The position numbers and the translations under genes were made by a program. The notes below the pieces were generated by a model. That model did no database searches and was not told where the DNA came from. It saw only the letters and a program-made list of their open reading frames with translations. Positions 1 through 11,223 of a stretch of DNA of 11,496 nt are shown here, one piece after another (the first letter of the stretch is position 1; the number at the start of each line of letters is the position of its first letter). Origin of the DNA: a virus (Duplodnaviria > Heunggongvirae > Uroviricota > Caudoviricetes); the IMG/VR virus record IMGVR_UViG_2541047847_000003, positions 1 through 11,496 of that record. The stretch is one strand, 5' to 3'.

Positions 1-95
1 AGTTTGCTCCTGCCATAACGTGAAGAAGCAATGACCTGGTGGTCCGTGACTTCCCTACGCTGGCATTATCCAGATCAGGTGATACGGGTATTTCT
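1..95 (-). promoter_or_regulatory. thiM: 3' part of the thiM TPP riboswitch (aptamer 3' half plus expression platform); thiM start codon lies just beyond the left edge
   Basis: Reverse complement of 1..95 reads AGAAAUACCCGUAUCACCUGAUCUGGAUAAUGCCAGCGUAGGGAAGUCACGGACCACCAGGUCAUUGCUUCUUCACGUUAUGGCAGGAGCAAACU, which matches the well-studied E. coli thiM thi-box leader as I recall it. Confidence 0.85.
82..95. other. attL core: 14-bp ATACGGGTATTTCT, identical to the copy at 11083..11096
   Basis: Exact 14-bp direct repeat at both island ends; flanking bases differ on both sides (81 g vs 11082 a; 96 t vs 11097 c). The repeat lies inside the riboswitch sequence. Confidence 0.75.
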
Positions 96-160
96 TACTA
101 ATTACTTTTACCAGTTGATAATAAATAAGTTTTTAAGAACGCATAAATTAAAAACCTCAG

Positions 161-235
161 AACTGACCACACAACTGACCACACATTTTGTTGAAGCTCT
201 ACGAACAACGACGAACAATAACAAACAAAAGGGAA
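161..235. repeat. attL-proximal arm block: tandem AACTGACCACAC x2 followed by ACGAACAA-type repeats; homologous to 10929..10995
   Basis: AACTGACCACAC at 161..172 and 173..184. The roughly 75-bp block is about 80% identical (by eye) to the block beside int at the other end, in the same orientation. Confidence 0.6.
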
Positions 236-1134
236 ATTTGCTGGTGGTTTTGCTTAACCGTTATCATTTTTCGGCTATCCGTCATGAAGCTGGTGGATGA
301 TCACGGATAACCAGGCATCCACAGCGCCTTAAAAAGCTGAACCCGACAAACATTTCTGCTTATCGGGTCCGATCGCTCTTTCTGCTCGTGGCAGATGAGT
401 TTATTGGGAGAGGCGGAAACATTGTATCAGGCTATCCCCTTTCTGTGCTGATTTGCATAGTTGTATATAGCTGTGCGTCCACCAGACACGCAGGAATGGA
501 GTTTGTGAGGAACTATAAATCCTGCGCAAATTTTCCCGGCCCACTCAAATTGAGTTTTCCGAAAATATCAACGGCTTAGGCCAAAGCCCGAAAAAGGGCT
601 TTGTAAAAAATTAACCTAATACGGTCGCTTTAACCTACGGTAATCGTTCTGCTTCGGTGTGTGTCCCCTCTGCGGCCATCATGACCATGCCATAACAAAA
701 ACCCCATATTCGTGGTTTTTCTGTGTCGGGGCTATTCTGCTGTTGCCGTGCTGGTGGATATTCTCCGGTATGCGACTCCCCATATCGGCATCAGGCCCAC
801 CAGCGTGAAGCGTTTTTCATTTTTCGCGGGTATAAAAAATTGATGGGGCTGGCAGTCCGGAAGACGTCAGGGTACAGAGATTTGACCCGCCCCTCCCTGT
901 GCATAAGCACAATAAGTAACAGAAGGCGGAATTCCGCCCTCGGTACTCACATATGAGAAACGATATTTCTTCCACCGATACCCTTTATTTGGGTATCGCG
1001 AGTAAGCCCCAAAATCTGGGTGTTACTCTTACTACCCAAACTACGGGTGGTTTCCGTAGTTTCATGGTCGAGTTGCAGATCTGCAACTCACCCACCAGCC
1101 AACGCAATTTTGCGTTATCGGGAATATCAGGAAT

Positions 1135-1419
1135 CTACCGCCGCAACCGTTCCGGCTTCCTCCACTGGTAAGTATTTTTCGCGCTCTCCCTCCGTTGTTG
1201 AGAACGGCGACGGTATGCCAGCAACTCAAGGACTCTGATCCGTATGTCGCGCATATCCACGCCGTTAAGCTCGATACCGTCACGGCGCATCATCTCAGCC
1301 ACCACACGCGCGTAATTTTCGGCTATCACGCTGTCCGGCTGCGTGGCCTCCTGTTTGCTTGATGGTTGTTTGATTCCGGTAACGCGGCGGATTAATCCCA
1401 GCAATTCAGATTCTGTCAT
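1135..1419 (-). CDS. Small protein immediately downstream of terS; possible lambda gpFI-like packaging accessory protein
   Basis: ORF of 94 aa. N-terminus MTESELLGLIRRVTG resembles lambda FI MTKDELIARLRSLG, and VVAEMMRRDG resembles the FI C-terminal VAAEMTERG, both from memory. The C-terminal 40 aa are basic and low-complexity. Confidence 0.45.
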   Translation of the reverse strand: MTESELLGLIRRVTGIKQPSSKQEATQPDSVIAENYARVVAEMMRRDGIELNGVDMRDIRIRVLELLAYRRRSQQRRESAKNTYQWRKPERLRR

Positions 1420-1430
1420 AGTGCGCTACG

Positions 1431-1958
1431 TTACTTGTCTTTATTCGGCTGCAACTTATCCGGCACATTTCCGGTAGTTTCCATCAGGTAATCAGCCAGT
1501 ATCTGCGGGAGGTTGTCGTCAACTCCGGCACTGGCATTACAGGCTTTAGCCACTTCCTTTTTAAGTCCATCCAGCATAGCCGGAGTCATCTGTGGGAAGC
1601 GCCTTTGCATGGTAAGCGGCAGACTGTCCATGATAGATGAAATCTGACTCGCCAGTTTGGAAAGAACATACATACAAAACTCTGTATCAATAACGTCGCC
1701 GCGTTCGCGCTCGTTTTTAAGCTCCTGCGCCTCTGCCTGTGCTGTCAGTAATCTGATCCTGACGCGTAAAAGTTCATCGTCATCAATATCGCCCGTTTCG
1801 TTTGTAATCTGACTAATTGCATTGTTAACCCGATTATCTATTACACTGGCAACATCATAGAATGCCTCACGGCCCTTACGCTCGACGGGAATCACTCCCC
1901 ACTTATCAAACGCAGTGGCGCTTACACGGCAACTTTTTGCCATGTTTTTTTTGTTCAT
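1431..1958 (-). CDS. Terminase small subunit, lambda Nu1 family
   Basis: Translation aligns with lambda Nu1: RLLTAQAEAQELKNERERGDVIDTEFCMYVLSKLASQISSIMDSLPLTMQRRFP versus RLTRAQADAQELKNARDSAEVVETAFCTFVLSRIAGEIASILDGLPLSVQRRFP. N-terminal DNA-binding region is more diverged. Start chosen at the ATG giving MNKKN; the ORF track extends to 1982. Confidence 0.85.
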   Translation of the reverse strand: MNKKNMAKSCRVSATAFDKWGVIPVERKGREAFYDVASVIDNRVNNAISQITNETGDIDDDELLRVRIRLLTAQAEAQELKNERERGDVIDTEFCMYVLSKLASQISSIMDSLPLTMQRRFPQMTPAMLDGLKKEVAKACNASAGVDDNLPQILADYLMETTGNVPDKLQPNKDK

Positions 1959-2083
1959 CAGGTGCAATTTCATTGATACCACAACTTAATTACTGTTTCA
2001 GGTTGGTGTATTGATTGTATTTTTCTCTTCTTATTCATAGAGATAGAGCGAACAACAAAACCACCACCAGCCCCCTGAAAATG

Positions 2084-2148
2084 CTCATAAATAGCGAAAA
2101 CCCGCGAGGTCGCCGCCCCGTAGCCTGCCGGATCGCCGGAAAGGACCC
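2084..2148 (-). other. Lambda-type cos site (cosQ-like and cosN; 12-nt cohesive-end sequence at 2107..2118)
   Basis: Reverse complement of 2084..2120 is ACGGGGCGGCGACCTCGCGGGTTTTCGCTATTTATGA, identical to the lambda cosN junction and left end. 2119..2148 matches the lambda right-end cosQ region at about 27 of 30 positions. Lies about 130-150 bp upstream of terS, as in lambda. Confidence 0.85.
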
Positions 2149-2174
2149 GCCAGCCAGAACGGGCCCTAATTTCA

Positions 2175-2558
2175 TCAACCAATCAACTTATAGCGACCAT
2201 CCCGTGCATTGCGACGTACACGCTCAATCTTGAGGCATAGCGCCGCATCTGGCTTTTTGGGGACAGGTACGCGGCAATATTCAGAAGCTCGAGGAATATT
2301 GTTTATCCAGTCGATCACTTCACTTAAATACCAGGCCTTACGCCCTTCCGTAACCTGTACGCGTTCGGGGAACTCTCCACGAGCCTCAAGGTTTAGCAAT
2401 GTGCGACGGCTAAGGGTAGTAAGTTCCATCACCTGATTCATATCAACAAGGCGTTCACTTAAACGCATTTTGTCAGCAATAGCCTTTAATTCCTCTACTG
2501 CTGGATCCGGATACATCATTTCGGCAATTGGCTTAAGGTCATTGTAATGATTCTGCAT
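2175..2558 (-). CDS. AlpA/Vis-family HTH protein (second copy), 127 aa
   Basis: Central segment LTTLSRRTLLNLEARGEFPERVQVTEGRKAWYLSEVIDWI matches the AlpA-type HTH pattern. GGGGGA Shine-Dalgarno 4 nt upstream of the ATG; sits between the decoration gene and cos. Confidence 0.65.
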   Translation of the reverse strand: MQNHYNDLKPIAEMMYPDPAVEELKAIADKMRLSERLVDMNQVMELTTLSRRTLLNLEARGEFPERVQVTEGRKAWYLSEVIDWINNIPRASEYCRVPVPKKPDAALCLKIERVRRNARDGRYKLIG

Positions 2559-2569
2559 TGTATCCCCCT

Positions 2570-2911
2570 TTACACACGAGCCAGCGGCTGAACAGAAATA
2601 CCTGAGCCAACAAACGCGGCAACCTTTGCCGACAGTTCTCTTACAGACTCAGGCCAGTTCAGAGCATCAACATTTAAAACACCTGTCTTATAAACCTGTG
2701 CCTGTGTTTTTTTCGCTGTGTCGATTTGTACAGCGGAAACATAAACCGCTTTGCCTGCGCTCGTTCCATCCCATACCACTAGCGCACCAGTTGCATCTTC
2801 CTGCATCAGTGGCGTAAACGCAGGTATTACCCCTTTATTGGCTGAAAATATCCCCAGCGTAGTAACCAGTGCTTCAGTGCCAGACATGAGTTCAGTGTAA
2901 TGAGTAGCCAT
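2570..2911 (-). CDS. Head decoration protein, lambda gpD-like
   Basis: 113 aa. FTPLMQEDATGALVVWDGTSAGKAV parallels lambda gpD [25 protein letters not shown]; similar length. GGGGGAG Shine-Dalgarno 9 bp after the MCP stop. Confidence 0.8.
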   Translation of the reverse strand: MATHYTELMSGTEALVTTLGIFSANKGVIPAFTPLMQEDATGALVVWDGTSAGKAVYVSAVQIDTAKKTQAQVYKTGVLNVDALNWPESVRELSAKVAAFVGSGISVQPLARV

Positions 2912-2920
2912 TGCTCCCCC

Positions 2921-3967
2921 TTAGCCAATGCGAACGGTAACAAAACGATTGATGCGGGCCGGTATTGGCTGTGGTGCTGAATGTGTCTGCACATATTCAA
3001 TAGCCGGATCACCAGGCACAATATAGTTTTTCGGTGCAAGTTCGGCTTTAGTCAGCCCCATCCGAATTAGCTCCGGATCCTGAATACCGCCATAAGCGAC
3101 AATCCCCTGAAGAGCCGTATTGCCAAGCACCATCAAATCAGGATCAAGGAAATATTTTTCAGTTCCGTCCTCGTCGGTATAACGCCCGCTGTAAACAACA
3201 ATCGCAACATCGCCCATATACCCTTTAAAACTCACCGAATCACCAAGGTCTTTAAGGGCCGTTTCCAGTTCGGAATTAGAACCTCGACGGGTATCCAGAG
3301 CCTCTTTTACAGCTCTGAATGAGCGGTATTTTTTCCATACATTGCCGCCCATAATAATGATATTAGTGACTCCCTCACTAAATTCTGCGTAGCTCTCAAT
3401 ATCATCATTTGGATCAAAAGATCCTTTATCCTTACCTGACCACTCAGCACCGCCAGACTGAGTGATGATATTTTGTGGTTTAATATTCCAGTCCAGTTCA
3501 TAACGTTCAATACCATCGCCCTCAATGATATTTTTCCCCGTTGTGATTGCCTGAACAGCAAGCCATTCAATACGTGCACGTATAGCTTTAGCCTGATTTA
3601 CAATCGCCTGTTTAACTTTAATATTACGCGCCCCAAAAGCATTGTATTGTTCAGGTGATACACCAGCAGGGCGCACAGCTAACTTATTTGGATCAATGCT
3701 GCTTTTCGGTTTCATATAGCCAGGGCGAATTGTTTTTGATTCGTATCCCTCATCTCGTGAAACTTTACTGCCCACCATAGGAGAGCAAAACGCCGCGATC
3801 GGGATATTTGGATCGTCGATCGTATCAAGAATAATGTCTCTCGATTCAAACATTACCGAGCGAGTGAAAAACAAACTGGTAAACAACGCATTTAATTTTT
3901 TTTGCACATCTTCAGCATTAGCCACCTGCACAAGCTGTGTAGGCGAATATAAATCAACCATACTCAT
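2921..3967 (-). CDS. Major capsid protein, lambda gpE family
   Basis: Long collinear similarity to lambda gpE, for example NIITQSGGAEWSGKDKGSFDPNDDIESYA and AVKEALDTRRGSNSELETALKDLG and GDVAIVVYSG. Start set at MSMVDLY (lambda begins MSMYTT) with AAGAGG just upstream; the ORF track start at 4048 is probably an upstream extension. Confidence 0.9.
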   Translation of the reverse strand: MSMVDLYSPTQLVQVANAEDVQKKLNALFTSLFFTRSVMFESRDIILDTIDDPNIPIAAFCSPMVGSKVSRDEGYESKTIRPGYMKPKSSIDPNKLAVRPAGVSPEQYNAFGARNIKVKQAIVNQAKAIRARIEWLAVQAITTGKNIIEGDGIERYELDWNIKPQNIITQSGGAEWSGKDKGSFDPNDDIESYAEFSEGVTNIIIMGGNVWKKYRSFRAVKEALDTRRGSNSELETALKDLGDSVSFKGYMGDVAIVVYSGRYTDEDGTEKYFLDPDLMVLGNTALQGIVAYGGIQDPELIRMGLTKAELAPKNYIVPGDPAIEYVQTHSAPQPIPARINRFVTVRIG

Positions 3968-4132
3968 CCTCTTTACATTCATTACAAATAATTGTGAATA
4001 TATTCTATTACCGATGTCTGCTATGCGAATACATGCAACCAAGTGCAATGTTGTATAAAATCTGCCGTGACAACTTCAGTGCTGATAATTCGTGTTAATG
4101 TATTTACTTCCTTTGGTCGGGATTTATGTAGC

Positions 4133-4171
4133 ATGCCGGAAAATCTATTTTCTTCCGGCATTTTTTTATTT
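4133..4171 (+). terminator. Intrinsic-terminator-like hairpin with T-run on the plus strand
   Basis: ATGCCGGAA (4133..4141), 11-nt loop, TTCCGGCAT (4153..4161), then TTTTTTTATTT. On the minus strand the hairpin has no U-run after it. Confidence 0.45.
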
Positions 4172-4178
4172 GCAGAAT

Positions 4179-4601
4179 TTAAAACGGTATATTATCGCCG
4201 TACGGATCATCATTCCCCGACTGTTGTTTTGCCCTGTTCAGTGCGTCAGTAGCCTGGCCCTGTTGACCTTTTTTGCCGCCCGGTCGCGCCGTTCTGGCAC
4301 TGATTACACTGTCTGCGATAACCTGCCAGCCCTGCCGCGTTTCGCCGTTCTGGCCTGTCCACTGGCTTACCTGCATGTTACCCGCCACGCTCACCAGTTC
4401 GCCTTTGTGGTGTTTTGCCAGTGCGTCGGCCTGTCTGCCAAACGCCAGGACGGATAACCACATCGTCGCCGTTCCGTCATCTGCCTGGCTGCACGGAAGT
4501 GGGACCGCCATACTCGCCATCGTCATTTGTGTACCCTTGCTGGTGGTCTTTAACTGCGGGTCAGCCACCAGCCGCCCGTAAGCCGCTATCTGTGCTGTCA
4601 T
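4179..4601 (-). CDS. Single-stranded DNA-binding protein (SSB-like)
   Basis: 140 aa with an OB-fold-like pattern (WLSVLAFGRQADALAKHHKGELVSVAGNMQVSQWTGQNGETRQ), a Gly/Gln-rich linker and a C-terminal DDPYGDNIPF resembling the SSB DDDIPF tail. Confidence 0.7.
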   Translation of the reverse strand: MTAQIAAYGRLVADPQLKTTSKGTQMTMASMAVPLPCSQADDGTATMWLSVLAFGRQADALAKHHKGELVSVAGNMQVSQWTGQNGETRQGWQVIADSVISARTARPGGKKGQQGQATDALNRAKQQSGNDDPYGDNIPF

Positions 4602-4843
4602 GCTGTCTGCTCTCCGGTTTTAACGTTGATGGTTGTCACCTGTTCCGCTTCGGCAATCTCCCGTTCTGTCAGCGTGGCAAAGTTTGCAGCTGCCGTTGTC
4701 ATGAATGAGCTAATCAGTTCGGGATGTGCTTTCGCATATCCTTCCCCGGCGTTGCGGTCGATGATTTTTATCGACACCCTTAACCAGTGTTCCGTCAAAT
4801 CAAGGGCGTGCGATTGTGATTTTTTTGTGTGCTTCGCTGTCAT
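4598..4843 (-). CDS. Hypothetical protein, 81 aa, translationally coupled to ssb
   Basis: ORF whose stop overlaps the ssb start by 4 bp (ATGA); no recognisable motifs. Confidence 0.45.
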   Translation of the reverse strand: MTAKHTKKSQSHALDLTEHWLRVSIKIIDRNAGEGYAKAHPELISSFMTTAAANFATLTEREIAEAEQVTTINVKTGEQTA

Positions 4844-4895
4844 AGGCTTTATCTCACAGCAGTAAATTAAAATTTTTGCGTTTTAACCCTTCACC

Positions 4896-5116
4896 TGTTC
4901 ACCTTTTGATATTTTATCTTTTAATTCATAATGTTAAGGGGTGAACAGTTTCACAAAAACTATTCACCAACTGTTCACCACTGTTCACCCTTGAAGCTCA
5001 ATAAACAATCAAAAAGGTGAACAGTGAATAGTTTGGTGAACAGTTCATAAATAACTGTTCACCCTATAACATACTGATACAAAAGATATTTATGACAGGG
5101 TGAACAGTGGTGAACA
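4896..5116. repeat. Origin-like iteron cluster: about 10 copies of TGTTCACC/GGTGAACA in both orientations with AT-rich spacers (P4 ori/crr type)
   Basis: TGTTCACC at 4896, 4972, 4982, 5056; GGTGAACA at 4940, 5016, 5035, 5099, 5109; variants at 4961 and 5024. Immediately downstream of the alpha-like gene. Confidence 0.85.
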
Positions 5117-5130
5117 GTTATTCCATAAGT

Positions 5131-6948
5131 TTAATTTTTGCTATCGTCATTAGTGACCGATACACATGATGGCATCCAGTCTTCTGATTCCTCCGTCAGT
5201 GTCACGTTTGAACGCAAACCGTGCTTCGTTTTCCGTTTCATATACTCCCTGCCATATTCCGCCATTGCCCCCGGCATATCTTTACCGAAGCGCGTCAGTG
5301 TTACAGGTTTACCAAACCCATGTGCCCTCATATAAGCCAGATAGGCATGATAGAGATACCTGCGTGGGCTGAATGGCACAATTTCAGCATTACCCACTAA
5401 CAGGCCATCACACATTACCGACGCCATGAGATAGCCGCAGAAGTCCACCAGCGAATCCCCCTCTCGCTTTATCGCCAGTGCTTCTTCAGATTTCTGCTGC
5501 TCATATAACAGGCGTCTGGCTTCGTCCTGGTCAGCAAACCGTGTAAGCAGATGGCGAATCACTACCGCCAACTCACCTTCTATTTTTTCCGCCAGCATTG
5601 GATCGCGTTCGTTCTCCGGTACAACTTCCGAAAAATTGAATATCACCCGACGACGTGAGATCCCCCCGCTGCGGTCACTGAATGACATGGCGTTATTGTT
5701 AACCGCCAGCACTACTGCCGGAATACGCGTTGAGTAGGGGGCTTTGTGTTTCGGGTCAATTGCCACCTTGTCACCGCCTGTAATGGCCTTAATTCCTGCC
5801 CCATCACCAGCGTAGCGGGTCATATCCGGCATGATAATCAGCGAAAAGCCAACCACTAACGCGCGTTCCCTTGCATCTTCCAGCGCCTTCATGCTTGCCG
5901 ATACTGTGTTGGCCTTACCCGCCAGCATGGTGCAAATCTCCGCCATCACGCTTTTACCACTTCCCCCTGGACCTGTTACCTCAATGAATAACTGCCAGTC
6001 GTACCGGTTCGCCAGCACCATGAATAATGCAGCCAGTACGCGATCCGCCTTGCGGTCATTCTCAGCCACCGAACGGCGTAACCACTTCCAGAAATTCGGC
6101 GCATGTGTTGCCAGCGTTTCCCCCTCTGCTGGTGGGCTGAAAGGTAATTCACTGGCAATTAACAACCAGTCGTTTTTGTTATGCTCCCGAAAATTACCTG
6201 TTCTGGTATCAAATACCCCGTTACTGAATCCAATCAGGTTACGGGCTGTATTCCCCATTACAGGCAAACTTAACTTCATGGTATCGACCGCCGATTTAAT
6301 GGCGTTCTGCGAATAGCTGATCTCTGCATCAATGAAAATCTGCGCCATAGCTCGCTGTAATTCTTTATCCTGTACTGGCTCCCATACAACGCCGTTGTAA
6401 TGGTGAACAGTGTCAGAGTCAGCATGAATCGCCAGTTCACCGCCATAATGTGCCAGGAGAACTTCGCCGCGTTGACTTGCTCCCATCTGGTTAAGCGCCA
6501 GTGATGAAGCGTTATCGTCTTTTACCCGCTCTTTTTTCTTTACAGGCAGTTCAACTACCTTTTTCTTTTCCGCCAGCTCTGCCCGTTCACGTTCCAGATA
6601 TTCGCGCCAGTTCTCCCGTTTCTGGCTGTGCATTCCTTCAGGGTAATAATCAGCATCCCTGACACCTGCCGCTGCCAGTTTCTGCCCGATGGTATTAACA
6701 AGCCCCGGACGCAATAACCCCGCCTGATAGAGACGCACGCGATAGCGTCCGTCCGGTACGATTTGCAGGTTGTCCAGTTCGGCAAGTTGTTGCTCTCCAA
6801 GCCAGACAGGAGGCACGTTATCGCCAGCCAGTCGCCCGTCCTGTTCCTGCCACTGCTTCGCATGTGCCCACGCATCACTACCCGCAAAAATGATGACTTC
6901 CGTCATTTTGTCACGCGGCTGGTGTTTTAAATTTGGCGCTTTTTTCAT
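5131..6948 (-). CDS. P4 alpha-like replication protein (primase/helicase family, D5-type P-loop NTPase)
   Basis: Walker A GPGGSGKS and a Walker B-like hydrophobic stretch; adjacent TGTTCACC iterons. Start set at the ATG giving MKKAPNL (GGAGAGAG upstream); the ORF track start at 6963 is a GTG. No primase catalytic motif was identified by eye. Confidence 0.8.
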   Translation of the reverse strand: MKKAPNLKHQPRDKMTEVIIFAGSDAWAHAKQWQEQDGRLAGDNVPPVWLGEQQLAELDNLQIVPDGRYRVRLYQAGLLRPGLVNTIGQKLAAAGVRDADYYPEGMHSQKRENWREYLERERAELAEKKKVVELPVKKKERVKDDNASSLALNQMGASQRGEVLLAHYGGELAIHADSDTVHHYNGVVWEPVQDKELQRAMAQIFIDAEISYSQNAIKSAVDTMKLSLPVMGNTARNLIGFSNGVFDTRTGNFREHNKNDWLLIASELPFSPPAEGETLATHAPNFWKWLRRSVAENDRKADRVLAALFMVLANRYDWQLFIEVTGPGGSGKSVMAEICTMLAGKANTVSASMKALEDARERALVVGFSLIIMPDMTRYAGDGAGIKAITGGDKVAIDPKHKAPYSTRIPAVVLAVNNNAMSFSDRSGGISRRRVIFNFSEVVPENERDPMLAEKIEGELAVVIRHLLTRFADQDEARRLLYEQQKSEEALAIKREGDSLVDFCGYLMASVMCDGLLVGNAEIVPFSPRRYLYHAYLAYMRAHGFGKPVTLTRFGKDMPGAMAEYGREYMKRKTKHGLRSNVTLTEESEDWMPSCVSVTNDDSKN

Positions 6949-7244
6949 TTCTGCTCTCTCCACGCGGCAATCATGTTTTTCAGTTCCTGTAGTTTTTTAT
7001 CCACATCCACACGTGACACATGGTTATTTCTGGAAGTCGGGATTTCCCGCCGGAATCTGCAAATAAAGATCTCCACGTTCAGCGAACTAAGAAATGAATA
7101 GCCATCACGAATAAAATACACACGGTCAAACATCAGTTCTTTTACCGTTACTCTGTTACCGTTCTTATCCAGATAAATAGCGCCGGGGATAATTTTGGGG
7201 TGTGCATAACCGCTGGCAGTCAAGCCAGATAAATATGTTCTCAT
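6945..7244 (-). CDS. Hypothetical protein, 99 aa, translationally coupled to the alpha-like gene
   Basis: Stop overlaps the alpha start (ATGA); no recognisable motifs. Confidence 0.55.
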   Translation of the reverse strand: MRTYLSGLTASGYAHPKIIPGAIYLDKNGNRVTVKELMFDRVYFIRDGYSFLSSLNVEIFICRFRREIPTSRNNHVSRVDVDKKLQELKNMIAAWREQK

Positions 7245-7250
7245 GATTAT

Positions 7251-7571
7251 TTATCCCCGATTTGAATCAGTATTCGCTTTCTTTATGGCATTTAATGCAT
7301 CTGTGGCATTTTCAATGGTGCACCGTAACGAAATATCAAACTGCCCAAGCATTGCCAGTAACAAACCGATATTACCCATATCAATGCGCATAGCCTTTTC
7401 GTCATAGTCCTCATTTTCTGACGCATGCCACATCAGACTACCAATTGACGCAACAGCCATTGATATATTGTCAGTAGCCCCATCCGCAGCGGAATAAACC
7501 TTTTTAGCAATATCATGCTCACAGTTAAAATGCGGATTAATCAGGTACTGGTAATTTGACATATCAGGCAT
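7251..7571 (-). CDS. Hypothetical protein, 106 aa
   Basis: ORF in the same operon; its start overlaps the stop of the upstream 67-aa ORF (ATGCCTGA). Confidence 0.55.
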   Translation of the reverse strand: MPDMSNYQYLINPHFNCEHDIAKKVYSAADGATDNISMAVASIGSLMWHASENEDYDEKAMRIDMGNIGLLLAMLGQFDISLRCTIENATDALNAIKKANTDSNRG

Positions 7572-7767
7572 GGCACACCCCCTGACGAATACGGGCGGCG
7601 AATACCATCACGCAGCCAGCCGGGGATTGCTGGCGTGCTTCCTGTTCGCTGGTGGCCACGATGTGAATCACGCGCGGTTGTGCGGTGCTCAGGGCGATAA
7701 AACGCCAGATGTATTTATTCAGGTCGTGCGAGTCCCGCCCTTGCGGGTGTGTGGTATGATTTCTCAT
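7564..7767 (-). CDS. Hypothetical small protein, 67 aa, first gene of the replication operon
   Basis: Internal ATG of the 320-aa track ORF, preceded by GAGG; the sequence upstream in that frame looks non-coding. Stop is coupled to the next gene. Confidence 0.45.
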   Translation of the reverse strand: MRNHTTHPQGRDSHDLNKYIWRFIALSTAQPRVIHIVATSEQEARQQSPAGCVMVFAARIRQGVCHA

Positions 7768-7863
7768 AGCTACCTCGATACGCTTTCTATCGTTGGTGGT
7801 TAGAAGCCCGGTTAGTGTTAGCGCACTGCCGGGTTTCGTCGTTTCTGCACCTTGCATCAACAA

Positions 7864-7917
7864 GGTGTTGAACACCAATTTAAGCCTAGGTGTTAAACAC
7901 GTCAAGTGTTGAACACT
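7864..7917. promoter_or_regulatory. Three operator-like inverted repeats (GGTGTTGAACACC, GGTGTTAAACAC, AGTGTTGAACACT) in a divergent promoter region
   Basis: Repeats at 7864..7876, 7889..7900 and 7905..7917. The third overlaps a candidate -35 (TTGAAC) placed 17 bp from CATACT for the plus-strand gene. Confidence 0.6.
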
Positions 7918-7966
7918 TATTTTTTTTCCTGCATACTGCATTTGTTTTTTGTAAGGGGTACACAAC

Positions 7967-8146
7967 ATGGCGACAAAAGCAGTAAACGCAAAATCACAAA
8001 CAGTTGCGGCAAGGGTTCCGCATGAAGTTATGAACAATGTTGAGGCGGTAAAAATGCCTGGTGAAAGTACAGGGCAGTTTGTAACAGCAGCATTAAAGCG
8101 AGAAGTTGAATACCGCCAGCGTCGCAAGGCCAAAGAGCAGGAGTAA
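7967..8146 (+). CDS. Small ribbon-helix-helix-like protein, 59 aa; candidate repressor
   Basis: Below the ORF-track length cutoff. AGGGG Shine-Dalgarno 8 nt upstream. Pattern QTVAARVPHEVMNNVEAV...GESTGQFVTAALKRE fits a beta-strand/helix/helix RHH layout. Confidence 0.5.
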   Translation: MATKAVNAKSQTVAARVPHEVMNNVEAVKMPGESTGQFVTAALKREVEYRQRRKAKEQE

Positions 8147-8203
8147 CCATCACCAGCGCCGTGGTGCGGTGAACTGTGGCGCACAGGGTTACAGGTATCT
8201 ACG

Positions 8204-8383
8204 ATGACTGACAAATCATTAAAGAAATTATCCTCATCCAAGAAAAAACAACGCAAAAATGCGGTAAACGAACATGAACCGGAGAGATTCGCACCATGTG
8301 CGTTTGTCCTTGAGAAGTACCTTAAAGAGTATTCTAGGAAAATACGCTCATTGCAGGCATGGCAGCGAATCGAGCCAGACTGA
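8204..8383 (+). CDS. Hypothetical small basic protein, 59 aa
   Basis: ORF found by hand downstream of the RHH-like gene and before the plus-strand terminator; weak Shine-Dalgarno. Confidence 0.3.
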   Translation: MTDKSLKKLSSSKKKQRKNAVNEHEPERFAPCAFVLEKYLKEYSRKIRSLQAWQRIEPD

Positions 8384-8447
8384 TAGCATTGCCCACCAGC
8401 CAACAACCTGGTATTCTGGATATGCTCAAGTTTAGTGTTATGCCACT

Positions 8448-8477
8448 GGCGACCGCCCTTGGTCGCCTTTGTTTTAT
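8448..8477 (+). terminator. Rho-independent terminator (plus strand)
   Basis: GGCGACC, loop GCCCTT, GGTCGCC, followed by TTTGTTTTAT. Confidence 0.6.
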
Positions 8478-8494
8478 GTGTCATAGCTCCCCCC

Positions 8495-8719
8495 CTACGC
8501 TGCCTTACCTGAATTAACGCGGTCACGGCTTTGCACCCAGTCCATAACTTCGGAAAGCAACCAGCCTACAGAACGCCCCCCAAGATTACGGCGAGACGGA
8601 AAGCCCCCTTTCTTCTCCAGTTCGTAGCGTGTAGTACGGCTGACGCCTGTTAACTTACGACATTCATCTTCACGAATTACGCGATCTGTTAGTGATTGAA
8701 ATTGTGTATTTTGATTCAT
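8495..8719 (-). CDS. alpA: AlpA-family transcriptional regulator / excisionase-like HTH protein
   Basis: 74 aa; RKLTGVSRTTRYELEKKGGFPSRRNLGGRSVGWLLSEVMDWV matches the AlpA/Vis-type HTH pattern; GAGGG Shine-Dalgarno. Confidence 0.8.
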   Translation of the reverse strand: MNQNTQFQSLTDRVIREDECRKLTGVSRTTRYELEKKGGFPSRRNLGGRSVGWLLSEVMDWVQSRDRVNSGKAA

Positions 8720-8822
8720 AAAAACACCCTCGAACGTAACCGAACAAGGGCATCTTATTTACCATAGCAGTTGGTGCAATATTGGAAAAATAAACTTTAT
8801 TCTAATTTATCGTTCTCCATGA

Positions 8823-9677
8823 TTAATTTTCATTAGATAACATTTTTCTTATTTTTTCTAAAGAATCGCTGCGCATTATTTTTTCTAAGAAGGGTTTTAC
8901 AGTCTGAGCAATAGCAAAGGTGTCCTTTTCACCATCAGGATACAAAGATACGGCAAGCACCCCTAATGAAATTTTTCTATCTGTAGACAACTCCCAAGAT
9001 AATAAGTCAATTAATGGGATTATCTTATAATCAATAATTTTACGTCGTATGCTCTCCCAACTTCCTGCAATTGGTTTGTCTGGCTCAACAATTGAAAGTT
9101 CACTACGCCATTTTGGTAATAGTTTTGTAAACGCTTCAATCAACTCATCATCTCTGTTATGTAGTAAGTCAACAGAAACAAGCATATTATCTAATGTATC
9201 AGAAAGGAGATTCACTGGTTCACGCATCACAGCCCAAAACATCCCATTATCTTCTGATATTAAACTTCCAACCATCTCATTATCTATGATGATTGGTTTA
9301 TCCTTCCAATATCCTCTTTCCGCAGTCAGTTTATTAATCATTGATATATCAAACCTTGTTACAGGTTTAATTCCATCATCATAACTTAGCTCAATTAACT
9401 TCGGCTGCACTTTATGGTCATATTCTTTTTGTTTATCACAAAACCAATCGTCTTCTTTCAGCTCTCCAAATGGATCCCCATAATTATTATGCAACGGGTA
9501 TTCAGCACCAAACATAAAACCATATTCAGGCATCTCAGAATGTTTCATTGTTAAATCATCTTGTCGCCAATATAATTGGCGAAATAGATCTTTATCCGAC
9601 AAGTTTTCTAGGCAATCATATTTGCCTAAATCAAATGACTTTGGTAAATCTTTTTTACTATTTACTTTTTTCGTCAT
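8823..9677 (-). CDS. Hypothetical 284-aa protein, AT-rich cargo gene immediately downstream of int
   Basis: Long ORF whose start overlaps the int stop by 4 bp. Visibly more AT-rich than the neighbouring genes (not computed). No motif I recognise. Confidence 0.7.
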   Translation of the reverse strand: MTKKVNSKKDLPKSFDLGKYDCLENLSDKDLFRQLYWRQDDLTMKHSEMPEYGFMFGAEYPLHNNYGDPFGELKEDDWFCDKQKEYDHKVQPKLIELSYDDGIKPVTRFDISMINKLTAERGYWKDKPIIIDNEMVGSLISEDNGMFWAVMREPVNLLSDTLDNMLVSVDLLHNRDDELIEAFTKLLPKWRSELSIVEPDKPIAGSWESIRRKIIDYKIIPLIDLLSWELSTDRKISLGVLAVSLYPDGEKDTFAIAQTVKPFLEKIMRSDSLEKIRKMLSNEN

Positions 9678-10894
9678 TGTATCCCTCTCAATATCACAAT
9701 ATTTTCATTATATCCTGCAATCATATCAAGACGCTCAACCCATAGATGCAGTGCGTCCCGTTTCGCCTGCAAATAGCGTGAATGGTTATAGGTTTTTTGC
9801 TGACCTGGCATCTGATGCGCTGTGATGTGCTCCACGATATGCGGATCGACACCTAAATCATTCAGCATAGTTGTAAACGTGTGTCGGAAATCATGCAGCG
9901 TCCAGTGTTCCTGCTTAAGCCGCTTATGCGCATTTCGTCCATATTGCGCCACCGTGGTATCTTTTTTCAGTTCGCCGAGTAATAACCCAGTGTGTGCGTT
10001 TTGCTCCACCAGCTTCTGAATGAACGGCAAAATACCATCAGGAATAGGTCGGAATATTGTTACCTTCGTTTTGCTGTGCTCTTTTGGCACTGTCCACAAC
10101 ATTTCTTTCAGATCCCATTCTTTGATCTCTGAAAGTCTGATCTCTGCCGTTCTGCACCCGAACACAATTAACAAGCGCATTAACGCACTGTAATAGGGAG
10201 CGAACACATCACCATCAATAGCGCGTAGAATTTCTTTTAGTTCGCTGTTGCTGTGCACTCTCTCGCGGATTTCTGCTCTCTTACCCACATCAGTAACGAT
10301 CAAATCGTCCAGGGCGTTGCTAAACGCGTAGCGCCGCCTGCGGCAAAACTTTAGCGCCTGTTTGCATGTCTGCATGACATGGCCCGCTGCTACTGGTGCT
10401 TTTTTTCGTACGCGGTCAAAACATGCGATCCACTGCCTTGTATCACACTTATCAAGGGGAATTGCCCCGATATGGCAAATGATGTGCTTATCCATACGCT
10501 GCACCAGCTTTATGTAATCTTTGCGGTTATCCTTCGCGTATTCCTCCAGCCAGTAGTTAATCGCTTCCTTCACCGTAACGGGTTTTAGTGCTTCCTGTAC
10601 TGTGGCGCACAACTCATACCGAGGGTTTTTACCCTCAGCCAGCCATGCCCGGCACTGTGTTCGCTTTTCCCTTGCAGATTTCAGCGACAATTCCGGGTAA
10701 GCCCCCAGCTTTAACCGCTCTGCGGCAACCTCACGGCCTCCCGTTCGGTACCGGAAATACCAGGTTAATTTACCTCCCTTTGAGTGTTTAATCTCCAGCC
10801 CGCCCCCGTCGGAGTAAAAACGTTCTTTTTCTGCCTGGACAGCCACCAATTTTTTTAACGTTGAATCGCTCAGTTTGTTTAGTGCTTTTCCCAC
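9674..10894 (-). CDS. int: Tyrosine recombinase, P4-type integrase family
   Basis: 406 aa. N-terminal arm-binding-type region (GGKLTWYFRYRTGGREV...LGAYPELSLKSAREK); C-terminal catalytic motifs HDFRHTF and YNHSRY; GTG start. Confidence 0.9.
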   Translation of the reverse strand: MGKALNKLSDSTLKKLVAVQAEKERFYSDGGGLEIKHSKGGKLTWYFRYRTGGREVAAERLKLGAYPELSLKSAREKRTQCRAWLAEGKNPRYELCATVQEALKPVTVKEAINYWLEEYAKDNRKDYIKLVQRMDKHIICHIGAIPLDKCDTRQWIACFDRVRKKAPVAAGHVMQTCKQALKFCRRRRYAFSNALDDLIVTDVGKRAEIRERVHSNSELKEILRAIDGDVFAPYYSALMRLLIVFGCRTAEIRLSEIKEWDLKEMLWTVPKEHSKTKVTIFRPIPDGILPFIQKLVEQNAHTGLLLGELKKDTTVAQYGRNAHKRLKQEHWTLHDFRHTFTTMLNDLGVDPHIVEHITAHQMPGQQKTYNHSRYLQAKRDALHLWVERLDMIAGYNENIVILRGIQ

Positions 10895-10928
10895 TATCAG
10901 ATCCTCTTTTCAGTCCTCCAGCCTCAAA

Positions 10929-10995
10929 AAACTGACCACACAACTGACCACACATTTCGCTGAAACTCGGCAAACAACAACGAACAGCAACAAAC
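10929..10995. repeat. int-proximal arm block: tandem AACTGACCACAC x2 plus CAACAACGAACA-type repeats; homologous to 161..235
   Basis: AACTGACCACAC at 10929..10940 and 10941..10952, about 30 bp upstream of the int start. Confidence 0.6.
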
Positions 10996-11082
10996 GAGAA
11001 AGCCAATTAAATCATTGTATATCAAACATATACACAAACAATCACGAACATCCCAGAACTACAAAAAACACTAAATGAGAAA

Positions 11083-11096
11083 ATACGGGTATTTCT
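11083..11096. other. attR core: ATACGGGTATTTCT
   Basis: Identical to 82..95; continuous on its right with chromosomal thiM leader sequence. Confidence 0.75.
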
Positions 11097-11127
11097 CAGC
11101 CTTCACAAAGAAGGGCACCCCGAGTCG
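11083..11127 (-). promoter_or_regulatory. thiM: 5' part of the thiM TPP riboswitch aptamer, separated from its 3' half by the island
   Basis: Reverse complement reads CGACUCGGGGUGCCCUUCUUUGUGAAGGCUGAGAAAUACCCGUAU, the 5' half of the thiM aptamer including the conserved CUGAGA element. Confidence 0.8.
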
Positions 11128-11223
11128 TTTGGTTGCGATAATAAATCGCAGAGGAGGATGGTAATGTCCAGCGCACGCGTTGTAAACGGGGAAAAACGGC
11201 GGTATTACAATAACGTTGTGAAA

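Follow-up and report, generated by a model that had tools for sequence, protein, structure and literature searches.

Satellite elements that carry the cos packaging site of a helper phage are well known. EcCICFT073, a phage-inducible chromosomal island (PICI) of Escherichia coli, possesses a pair of cos sites, named cos1 and cos2, that were both shown experimentally to be functional (PMC6092414, PMC6739421), and the 2018 paper describes it as lacking a TerS homologue (PMC6092414). SaPIbov5 is packaged by the HNH-dependent TerS-TerL of its helper through a helper-type cos (Quiles-Puchalt et al. 2014; PMC5052747). Like satellite P4, the cos-type Staphylococcus aureus pathogenicity islands (SaPIs) carry the helper cos for the helper terminase, and for SaPIbov4 a pair of putative cos sites is described, their type not being stated. 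Capsid-forming PICIs encode their own TerS, TerL, HNH, portal, protease and capsid proteins, and the preprint text available to us does not map their cos site (Alqurainy et al., bioRxiv 10.1101/2022.09.08.507074). Here, we analyzed an 11,496-nt segment of the E. coli chromosome (IMG/VR record IMGVR_UViG_2541047847_000003; this whole stretch is called the window, and all coordinates refer to it), which contains an ~11-kb island at 96-11082. The island is a PICI with an EcCICFT073-like gene set. We are highly confident that the stretch between its left attachment site and its nearest gene (96-1134) is noncoding and holds a genuine homologue of the P27/SfV-type cos. Moreover, this stretch is probably a cis-acting terminal region of the PICI, centered on a complete P27/SfV/HK97-like cos that is used for packaging.

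The locus resembles each of the described systems in part. It shares with EcCICFT073 a lambda E-like capsid protein, a D-like decoration protein and a lambda-type cos; however, both cosN of EcCICFT073 are of the lambda type, whereas the second cos of this island belongs to the unrelated, HNH-dependent P27/SfV type. This second site lies in the terminal noncoding region, and the island additionally carries a Nu1-family gene. No RppC homologue was detected, since the 127-aa AlpA-like and 183-aa Nu1-family proteins gave no sequence match to the RppC chains in the PDB. With phages SfV, SfI, SfII, ST64B and phiP27, the island shares 83 nt at 83-94% identity, the cohesive end, both flanking blocks and a small palindrome at the same distance from cosN. 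In those phages the site lies between the HNH and terS genes, whereas here it sits beside attL without these genes, its flanks are PICI-specific and contain Chi, and one cosN base differs. The SaPIs and P4 differ in host and in their unrelated sequence, and in the accounts consulted each carries the cos type of its own helper. Among the capsid-forming PICIs, locus L009, which is integrated at clpS and encodes its own P27-family TerS, TerL and HNH, matches window positions 783-1099 with 97.5% identity at the same island-end position and has the same 94-aa last gene. In contrast to these elements, our island has none of the first five gene products listed above and carries lambda-type D, E and Nu1 homologues instead. 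As TerL, portal, protease and HNH are absent, it is not a capsid-forming PICI. Given the precedents among satellites, the core finding is an explained feature and not a new class.

The P27/SfV-type cos site

When window positions 100-1140 were used as the query against phage genomes, an 83-nt core at 815-897 (plus strand) was found to be 90-94% identical to the termini of SfII, SfV, SfI, SfIV and ST64B, with E values down to 9e-27, and 83% identical to the annotated cos-site region of phiP27. This homology identifies the core as a cos of the P27/SfV/HK97-like, HNH-dependent type, with its terS-facing side toward lower coordinates. Prophages, such as one in UTI89, carry these 83 nt with the HNH gene on one side and a P27-family terS on the other. 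The cosN equivalent is GGGGCTGGCA (845-854, plus strand), a predicted 10-nt cohesive end that aligns with the annotated phiP27 cos-site and with the exact record termini of SfV and SfI, which in the alignment fall on one and the same block containing GGGGCGGGCA. Experiments on SfI established its cohesive end as 5′-TGCCCGCCCC-3′, and GGGGCGGGCA is the reverse complement of this sequence (PMC3636060). Nine of the 10 positions of GGGGCTGGCA agree with the SfI sequence. We have moderate confidence that 845-854 would be cut for packaging in this island.

A small palindrome, TGTGCATAAGCACA, lies at 898-911, and the phages carry different palindromes (CTCAAGCAGTTGAG and CTCAGAAAGTTGAG) at the same position relative to cosN. 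The sequence TATAAAAAA at 831-839, which a preliminary description of the DNA had correctly located near 830 and called promoter-like, lies inside the core, on the side of the cut that faces terS, and the phages themselves conserve it; it is therefore part of the phage-derived cos site.

A second cos site of the lambda type

A second cos, comprising a cosQ/cosN segment of the lambda type, is located on the minus strand at 2072-2150; its 79 nt are 93% identical to lambdoid phages. It includes an exact copy of the 12-mer lambda cosN, GGGCGGCGACCT, at 2107-2118 (minus strand), for which ~0.001 exact matches would be expected by chance. The site lies ~125 nt upstream of the Nu1-family gene (1431-1982), which is the arrangement found in lambda. 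In both cos sites the terS-proximal side is directed toward lower coordinates, and they therefore share the same polarity.

This pairing is not confined to the present island: the interval that joins the P27-type cos with the lambda-type cos was recovered at a coverage of at least 80% in 149 of 5,426 complete E. coli genomes, the set used for all genome counts below. In the literature searched, which was incomplete and constitutes weak evidence of novelty, we found neither two different cos types in one PICI nor a description of a P27/SfV-type cos in E. coli PICIs. The island of E. coli Nissle 1917 (locus L011), which seems to belong to the EcCICFT073 type, carries two lambda cosN, and the P27-type core is absent from it. 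At positions 5908-6450 of that locus, the Prokaryotic Genome Annotation Pipeline (PGAP) calls a Nu1-like "terminase small subunit". A Chi site at 2064-2071 of the window lies directly beside the lambda-type cos.

Chi sites and integration host factor consensus units

The window contains 13 copies of Chi (GCTGGTGG), whereas 0.40 would be expected and 200 shuffles gave 3 at most; this density is ~5 times the E. coli genome average. Six copies are on the plus strand and seven on the minus strand, and five of the sites fall within 96-1140. Those at 240-247, 289-296 and 750-757 are on the plus strand, in the orientation that RecBCD recognizes when it travels leftward from the cut, whereas those at 797-804 and 1092-1099 are on the minus strand. 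RecBCD reads Chi on the 3′-ended strand, coming from the 3′ side of the motif. By this polarity rule, the sites at 750 (plus strand, 87 nt left of the cut) and 1092 (minus strand, 237 nt right of it) face both ends that a cut at 845-854 would produce.

The same arrangement was observed in other PICIs. Among the 25 PICI loci that carry this cos, the flank to its right contains almost exclusively minus-strand Chi within 1.5 kb, and the left flank usually has plus-strand Chi at ~86 and 209 nt; these loci are related, so that they represent one architecture seen repeatedly and not independent events. In four phage cos loci, Chi never occurs in the cut-facing arrangement. With low to moderate confidence, we suggest that the Chi sites may shield linear DNA from RecBCD.

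A second signal at this island end is the consensus for integration host factor (IHF), WATCAANNNNTTR. Its single exact match in the window, TATCAACGGCTTA at 566-578, is no more than expected by chance. However, across 93 oriented loci, 89 of 177 consensus matches fall in the 300-nt zone beside the 94-aa gene, all of them on the plus strand, compared with an expectation of ~27 over the entire 878 kb of these loci. The corresponding element of the window, a palindrome (ACGCAA/TTGCGT) with the degenerate IHF-like sequence TATCAGGAATCTA at 1102-1137 (plus strand), is a unit repeated one to four times in relatives. These IHF-consensus units may be bending sites, an assignment to which we also attach low to moderate confidence, as we do to the roles of the palindrome elements described below.

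Distribution of the cos cassette

The 83-nt core was present in 1,650 of the 5,426 genomes, and 352 genomes contained it with island-type flanks. Most of the 1,650 are presumably prophage copies, UTI89 being the one context that was checked. Within PICIs, the cassette crosses the boundaries between classes. Besides the capsid-forming L009, in whose locus no other cos-like sequence was detected, it occurs in lambda-type PICIs at clpS (L008) and thiM (L002), as well as in PICIs with other head modules that lack Nu1- and P27-family terminase genes, such as L093 at thiM. Between these classes it is 97-99% identical. A scan of IMG/VR returned 84 loci, nearly all with at least 91% identity in the core, and two pattern scans for more divergent copies, run on the species representatives of GTDB, yielded nothing.

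To the left of the cassette, 672-804 is a conserved PICI spacer module that is 91-96% identical in clpS islands and in E. coli Nissle 1917. A 9-bp repeat, CCCACCAGC, occurs at 796-804 and 1091-1099 and brackets 805-1090; the Chi at 797-804 corresponds to its left copy and ends the spacer module. In the Nissle island, 672-804 is joined directly to 1091-1114 without 805-1090. The Nissle junction and the bracketing repeats together indicate that 805-1090 acts as a cassette of its own. Through such an exchangeable end module, common to both, the lambda-type and the capsid-forming PICIs would be connected.

We also observed a second, divergent cos-like sequence, TTTCACGGGGGTAAAAATTCGAAGAGGCGGGCAC, in several capsid-forming PICIs (L031 at 1075-1400, L001 at 7120-7249, and also L020, L048 and L069). 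There it directly follows the first cos-plus-palindrome unit. Behind it come GCGGGTTA iterons, both direct and inverted, which surround an AT-rich stretch, and after these a second copy of the palindrome module.

A putative mechanism of packaging

Taking these data together, we propose a putative mechanism for the packaging of the island. Upon induction, the island would excise and replicate as concatemers. A TerS-TerL-HNH terminase, provided either by a helper prophage or by a co-resident capsid-forming PICI with the same cassette, would bind 815-897 and introduce staggered nicks at 845-854, and packaging would then proceed toward lower coordinates, across attP. Through its P27-type and lambda-type cos sites, the island could be packaged by two unrelated terminase systems, and the Chi sites facing both cut ends would keep RecBCD from digesting the linear molecule. 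The variable insert at 303-671 would be dispensable filler.

Several observations weigh against this mechanism. No HNH, P27-family TerS or TerL was found in the window by Pfam or by tblastn with the L009 proteins, so that function would need another element, and the site is located between attL and the 94-aa gene and not in its phage context between HNH and terS. One of the 10 cosN positions departs from the phage consensus (T for G at position 6), although the T variant is common to capsid-forming PICIs and the G form is also present in sister islands. With 11 kb, the genome does not match a capsid of ~40-kb capacity well unless multimers are packaged. The near-identity of the cassette is equally explained by recent recombination of a shared end module, and conservation is therefore no proof of use. 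Finally, the roles of Chi, IHF and the arm-type sites described below are assigned from consensus matches and orientation in related, non-independent loci.

An alternative is that the P27-type cos is a passenger, acquired when PICI families recombined their terminal module of 94-aa gene, palindrome array and cos slot and functional only in capsid-forming PICIs, and that packaging occurs solely through the lambda-type cos with the Nu1-like protein. This alternative accounts for the high identity of the cassette across PICI classes, for the CCCACCAGC direct repeats that bound it and for its clean absence from the Nissle island, and many Nu1-type islands exist without the cassette. Against a passenger, the cassette persists with an intact cosN in 149 two-cos genomes, its cos shares the polarity of the lambda cos, Chi sites face it from both sides, and it is kept in PICIs with neither Nu1- nor P27-family terminase genes. 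We consider the passenger explanation unlikely.

If the P27-type cos is used for packaging, as we propose, the possession of two cos types would extend the range of helpers open to the PICI. We tentatively speculate, while regarding the idea as rather doubtful, that the island and its ~150 relatives are dual-specificity satellites that two unrelated helper lineages can mobilize. As capsid-forming PICIs use the same cassette, the island might also be packaged by the terminase of another satellite, which would make it a satellite of a satellite, and Chi would serve as a RecBCD shield for an element without Gam.

Insertion into the thiM riboswitch and transcription toward thiM

The island is inserted in the thiamine pyrophosphate (TPP) riboswitch of thiM and severs the 5′ half of the aptamer from the rest. 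The genes thiM and thiD lie leftward on the minus strand; the thiM coding sequence (CDS) ends at window position 0, with its start codon immediately left of position 1. Positions 1-95 (minus strand) are the 3′ part of the thiM leader, with the distal half of the aptamer and the expression platform, and the 5′ half of the aptamer is located beyond the right-hand att core (11083-11135 side), so that the two halves are ~11 kb apart. Consistent with this split, Rfam at the gathering threshold returned no family anywhere in the window, the TPP riboswitch included, and a relaxed search recovered RF00059 at 35-122 with 34.4 bits against a gathering score of 54.3, with P2/P3 pairs marked as noncanonical or missing. 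When the two flanks were rejoined in silico, the sequence was 100% identical to genomes annotated "riboswitch" at this place.

An exact 14-bp duplicate, ATACGGGTATTTCT, forms the att core at 82-95 (attL) and 11083-11096 (attR). The preliminary description had correctly put the junction between island and chromosome at ~96 and the stretch at the attL end, adjoining int across attP in the excised circle. A tRNA/tmRNA search of the window found none, which indicates that the att site of the island is not a tRNA. An uninterrupted thiM site was found in 4,728 complete E. coli genomes, and 698 (~13%) lack one. In the literature searched, again incomplete, no paper connected PICIs with thiM.

Since the aptamer is split but thiM and thiD are intact CDS in occupied genomes, thiMD expression and TPP control must be altered, and the interruption of the site in ~13% of genomes raises a testable question on the expression and regulation of thiMD. 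It also invites the explanation that the stretch supplies an outward promoter for thiM-thiD, now that the island separates these genes from their native promoter and riboswitch; this may hold alongside the use of the cos for packaging. By eye, two minus-strand candidates with 8 of 12 consensus positions were found in the AT-rich segment 96-180 (TTGTGT-16-TTTAAT and TTTATG-18-TATTAT). However, these candidates fall within the Int arm region and do not stand out from the AT-rich background, and a sigma-70 scan of 1-1500 on both strands yielded no site at threshold, where 2.2 were expected. Thus, although the split aptamer, the intact genes and the frequency of interruption speak for it, we judge an outward promoter in this stretch to be unlikely.

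The earlier suggestion that leftward transcription from this region runs into thiM must be qualified as well. The stretch does face thiM, but a terminator scan flagged two hairpins on the minus strand (941→922 and 370→339), which read-through from the late operon would meet before thiM. The hairpin at 370→339, a strong terminator-like one, lies within the variable insert and is hence absent from sister islands.

The terminal palindrome module

To the right of the cos core, 922-1099 consists of five or six palindromic hairpins and ends in the minus-strand Chi at 1092-1099. Palindrome A (922-941) is terminator-like on the minus strand and includes GGCGGAATTCCGCC at 925-938, 8 bases away from the 933-946 at which this palindrome had previously been placed. 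It is shared with L010-type islands without the cos core. Hairpins B (976-998), C (1000-1028), D (1038-1062) and E (1070-1089) form the array at 972-1099, in which hairpin E is a perfect 20-nt palindrome around GATC. The 972-1099 core was present in 707 genomes (~13%), with as many as six locations in a single genome, and at least four different left flanks adjoin it in lambda-type, capsid-forming and helper-embedded PICIs. It is nearly always unannotated, the one exception being a 52-aa minus-strand "hypothetical protein" called by PGAP in L013-type copies. In the islands L010 (O157:H7) and L012, which are embedded in prophage late genes (terminase gpA and major capsid) as has been reported of helper-embedded PICIs, the palindrome module is present and the P27-type cos core is absent.

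The array might act as RNA, either as the 3′ untranslated region of the late operon or as a small regulatory RNA, and this would be compatible with a functional cos next to it. Its position directly downstream of the last gene of the minus-strand operon and its extreme predicted stability (z-score of -7.1 for 905-1105 on the minus strand) are in favor of such a role. However, the palindromes fold equally well on both strands (-6.55 on the plus strand), hairpins B-E have no T-run after them and were not flagged in the terminator scan, no promoter was found, and there was no Rfam match to the array even at E = 10. The pattern of substitutions is similarly ambiguous. Across 39 distinct copies, hairpin B shows two compensatory positions (C-G to T-A in five sequences and A-T to C-G in one), and hairpin E shows a symmetric GATC to AATT change in L012. 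However, symmetric changes are also expected at the site of a dimeric DNA-binding protein, hairpins C and D have frequent uncompensated mismatches, D is partly deleted in some copies, and the A-C and G-T mismatch sites (~10 versus 6) give no strand signal. We therefore consider a function as RNA to be distinctly improbable, and the small RNAs suggested by the preliminary description found little backing in the weak, strand-neutral covariation. For the array, we regard two roles as candidates: a protein-binding array tied to the cos slot, or a stabilizing 3′ end of the late transcript. The terminal module of palindrome array, IHF-consensus units and Chi sites that face the cos slot provides a concrete sequence signature for PICI ends and cos slots.

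Coding potential of the terminal region

Between the att core and position 1135, where the 94-aa gene terminates, no credible open reading frame (ORF) was found. The ORF-poor stretch of ~850 bp noted previously is thus real and in fact longer, extending to 1134. The only ORFs of at least 60 aa in it are 31-300, 388-579, 723-956 and 953-1171. The first begins in the thiM leader and spans the att core, and it therefore cannot be an island gene. The second (63 aa, GTG start) lies within the variable insert, the third (77 aa, GTG start) passes through the cos site, and the fourth encodes 72 aa. Six ORFs in or overlapping the stretch, including the last three of these and excluding 31-300, had no PHROG family match. 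Additionally, in four related islands the PGAP annotation leaves the corresponding stretch without a CDS, and Rfam at E ≤ 10 over 1-1500 returned just the truncated TPP aptamer and one chance snoRNA match.

Small proteins shorter than the ORF cutoff, as the short peptides of the preliminary description would be, are very improbable products of this stretch despite the three ORFs of 63, 77 and 72 aa, since two of them start with GTG, one overlaps the cos core, 388-579 belongs to an insert that most islands lack, 723-956 has a 1-nt deletion in L002 and L008, 953-1171 has indels of 13, 10 and 1 nt in relatives and loses its start in L013-type copies, and PGAP calls none of them, its only call being the 52-aa one over the L013-type array.

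Gene content and other features of the island

All assignable genes of the island are on the minus strand. Pfam matches identified int (9674-10894), whose product has the arm-binding domain Arm-DNA-bind_3, a D5-type primase (5131-6963), a lambda E-like capsid protein (2921-4048), a lambda D-like decoration protein (2570-2911), a 127-aa AlpA-domain protein (2175-2558) and the 183-aa Nu1-family small-terminase-like protein (1431-1982; PF07471 Phage_Nu1, E 1e-24), with PF03864 and PF02924 covering the E-like and D-like genes. Further genes encode an SSB and a DUF6387 protein. The size of ~11 kb, within the ~10-15 kb usual for PICIs, the att repeats, int, the AlpA-type regulator, the primase with iterons and the lack of lysis and tail genes characterize the element as a PICI, together with the capsid and decoration homologues and the exact lambda cosN.

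The noncoding stretch is bounded by a conserved 94-aa gene (1135-1419, minus strand; phrog_1561), which is the last gene before the noncoding end in lambda-type, capsid-forming and helper-embedded PICIs alike. Its protein has 907 homologues, and those among the 120 listed are named only "hypothetical" or "prophage protein". It has a basic C terminus, and its AlphaFold model consists of three helices with a pLDDT of 70; the model gave no meaningful fold match in the PDB or BFVD, and the sequence had no match in the PDB. The 94-aa, 70-aa, 127-aa and 183-aa proteins beside the stretch had no match in NCBIfam.

Between attL and the variable insert, 161-226 (plus strand) represents the P′ arm of attP, with two tandem copies of AACTGACCACAC (161-172 and 173-184) followed by CGAACAA repeats. 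It forms a 66-nt direct repeat (family D1) with 86% identity to the P arm copy at 10930-10995 (plus strand), which lies between int and the attR core, and both copies flank the core in the excised circle. From this repeat layout and the arm-binding domain of Int, the two segments are probably Int arm-type sites.

The variable insert itself (303-671, 369 bp) is a mosaic that holds the hairpins at 339-370 and 583-602 and, at 543-578, a palindrome with the IHF consensus. It is absent from L002 and L093 and partial in L008; at least 80% of it was present in just two of the 5,426 genomes, and pieces of it are scattered through other islands and P1-like plasmids. The idea of a decayed cargo slot, which had been offered for the whole region, fits this insert only; the main function of the stretch, a packaging site with recombination architecture, had not been proposed. 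Within the insert, 70 nt at 330-400 are 84% identical to the rlfB/rapB segment of phages P1 and P7 and of P1-like plasmids, and this rlfB-like segment overlaps the terminator-like hairpin. A similarity search, the only analysis applied, gave no evidence that 330-400 is a gene remnant of P1 rlfB. The hairpin at 583-602 (AAAGCCC/GGGCTTT) is present as first described and was not flagged in the terminator scan. Farther inside the island, dense direct and inverted GGTGAACAGT iterons at 4895-5132 adjoin the primase gene and are presumably the replication origin of the island.

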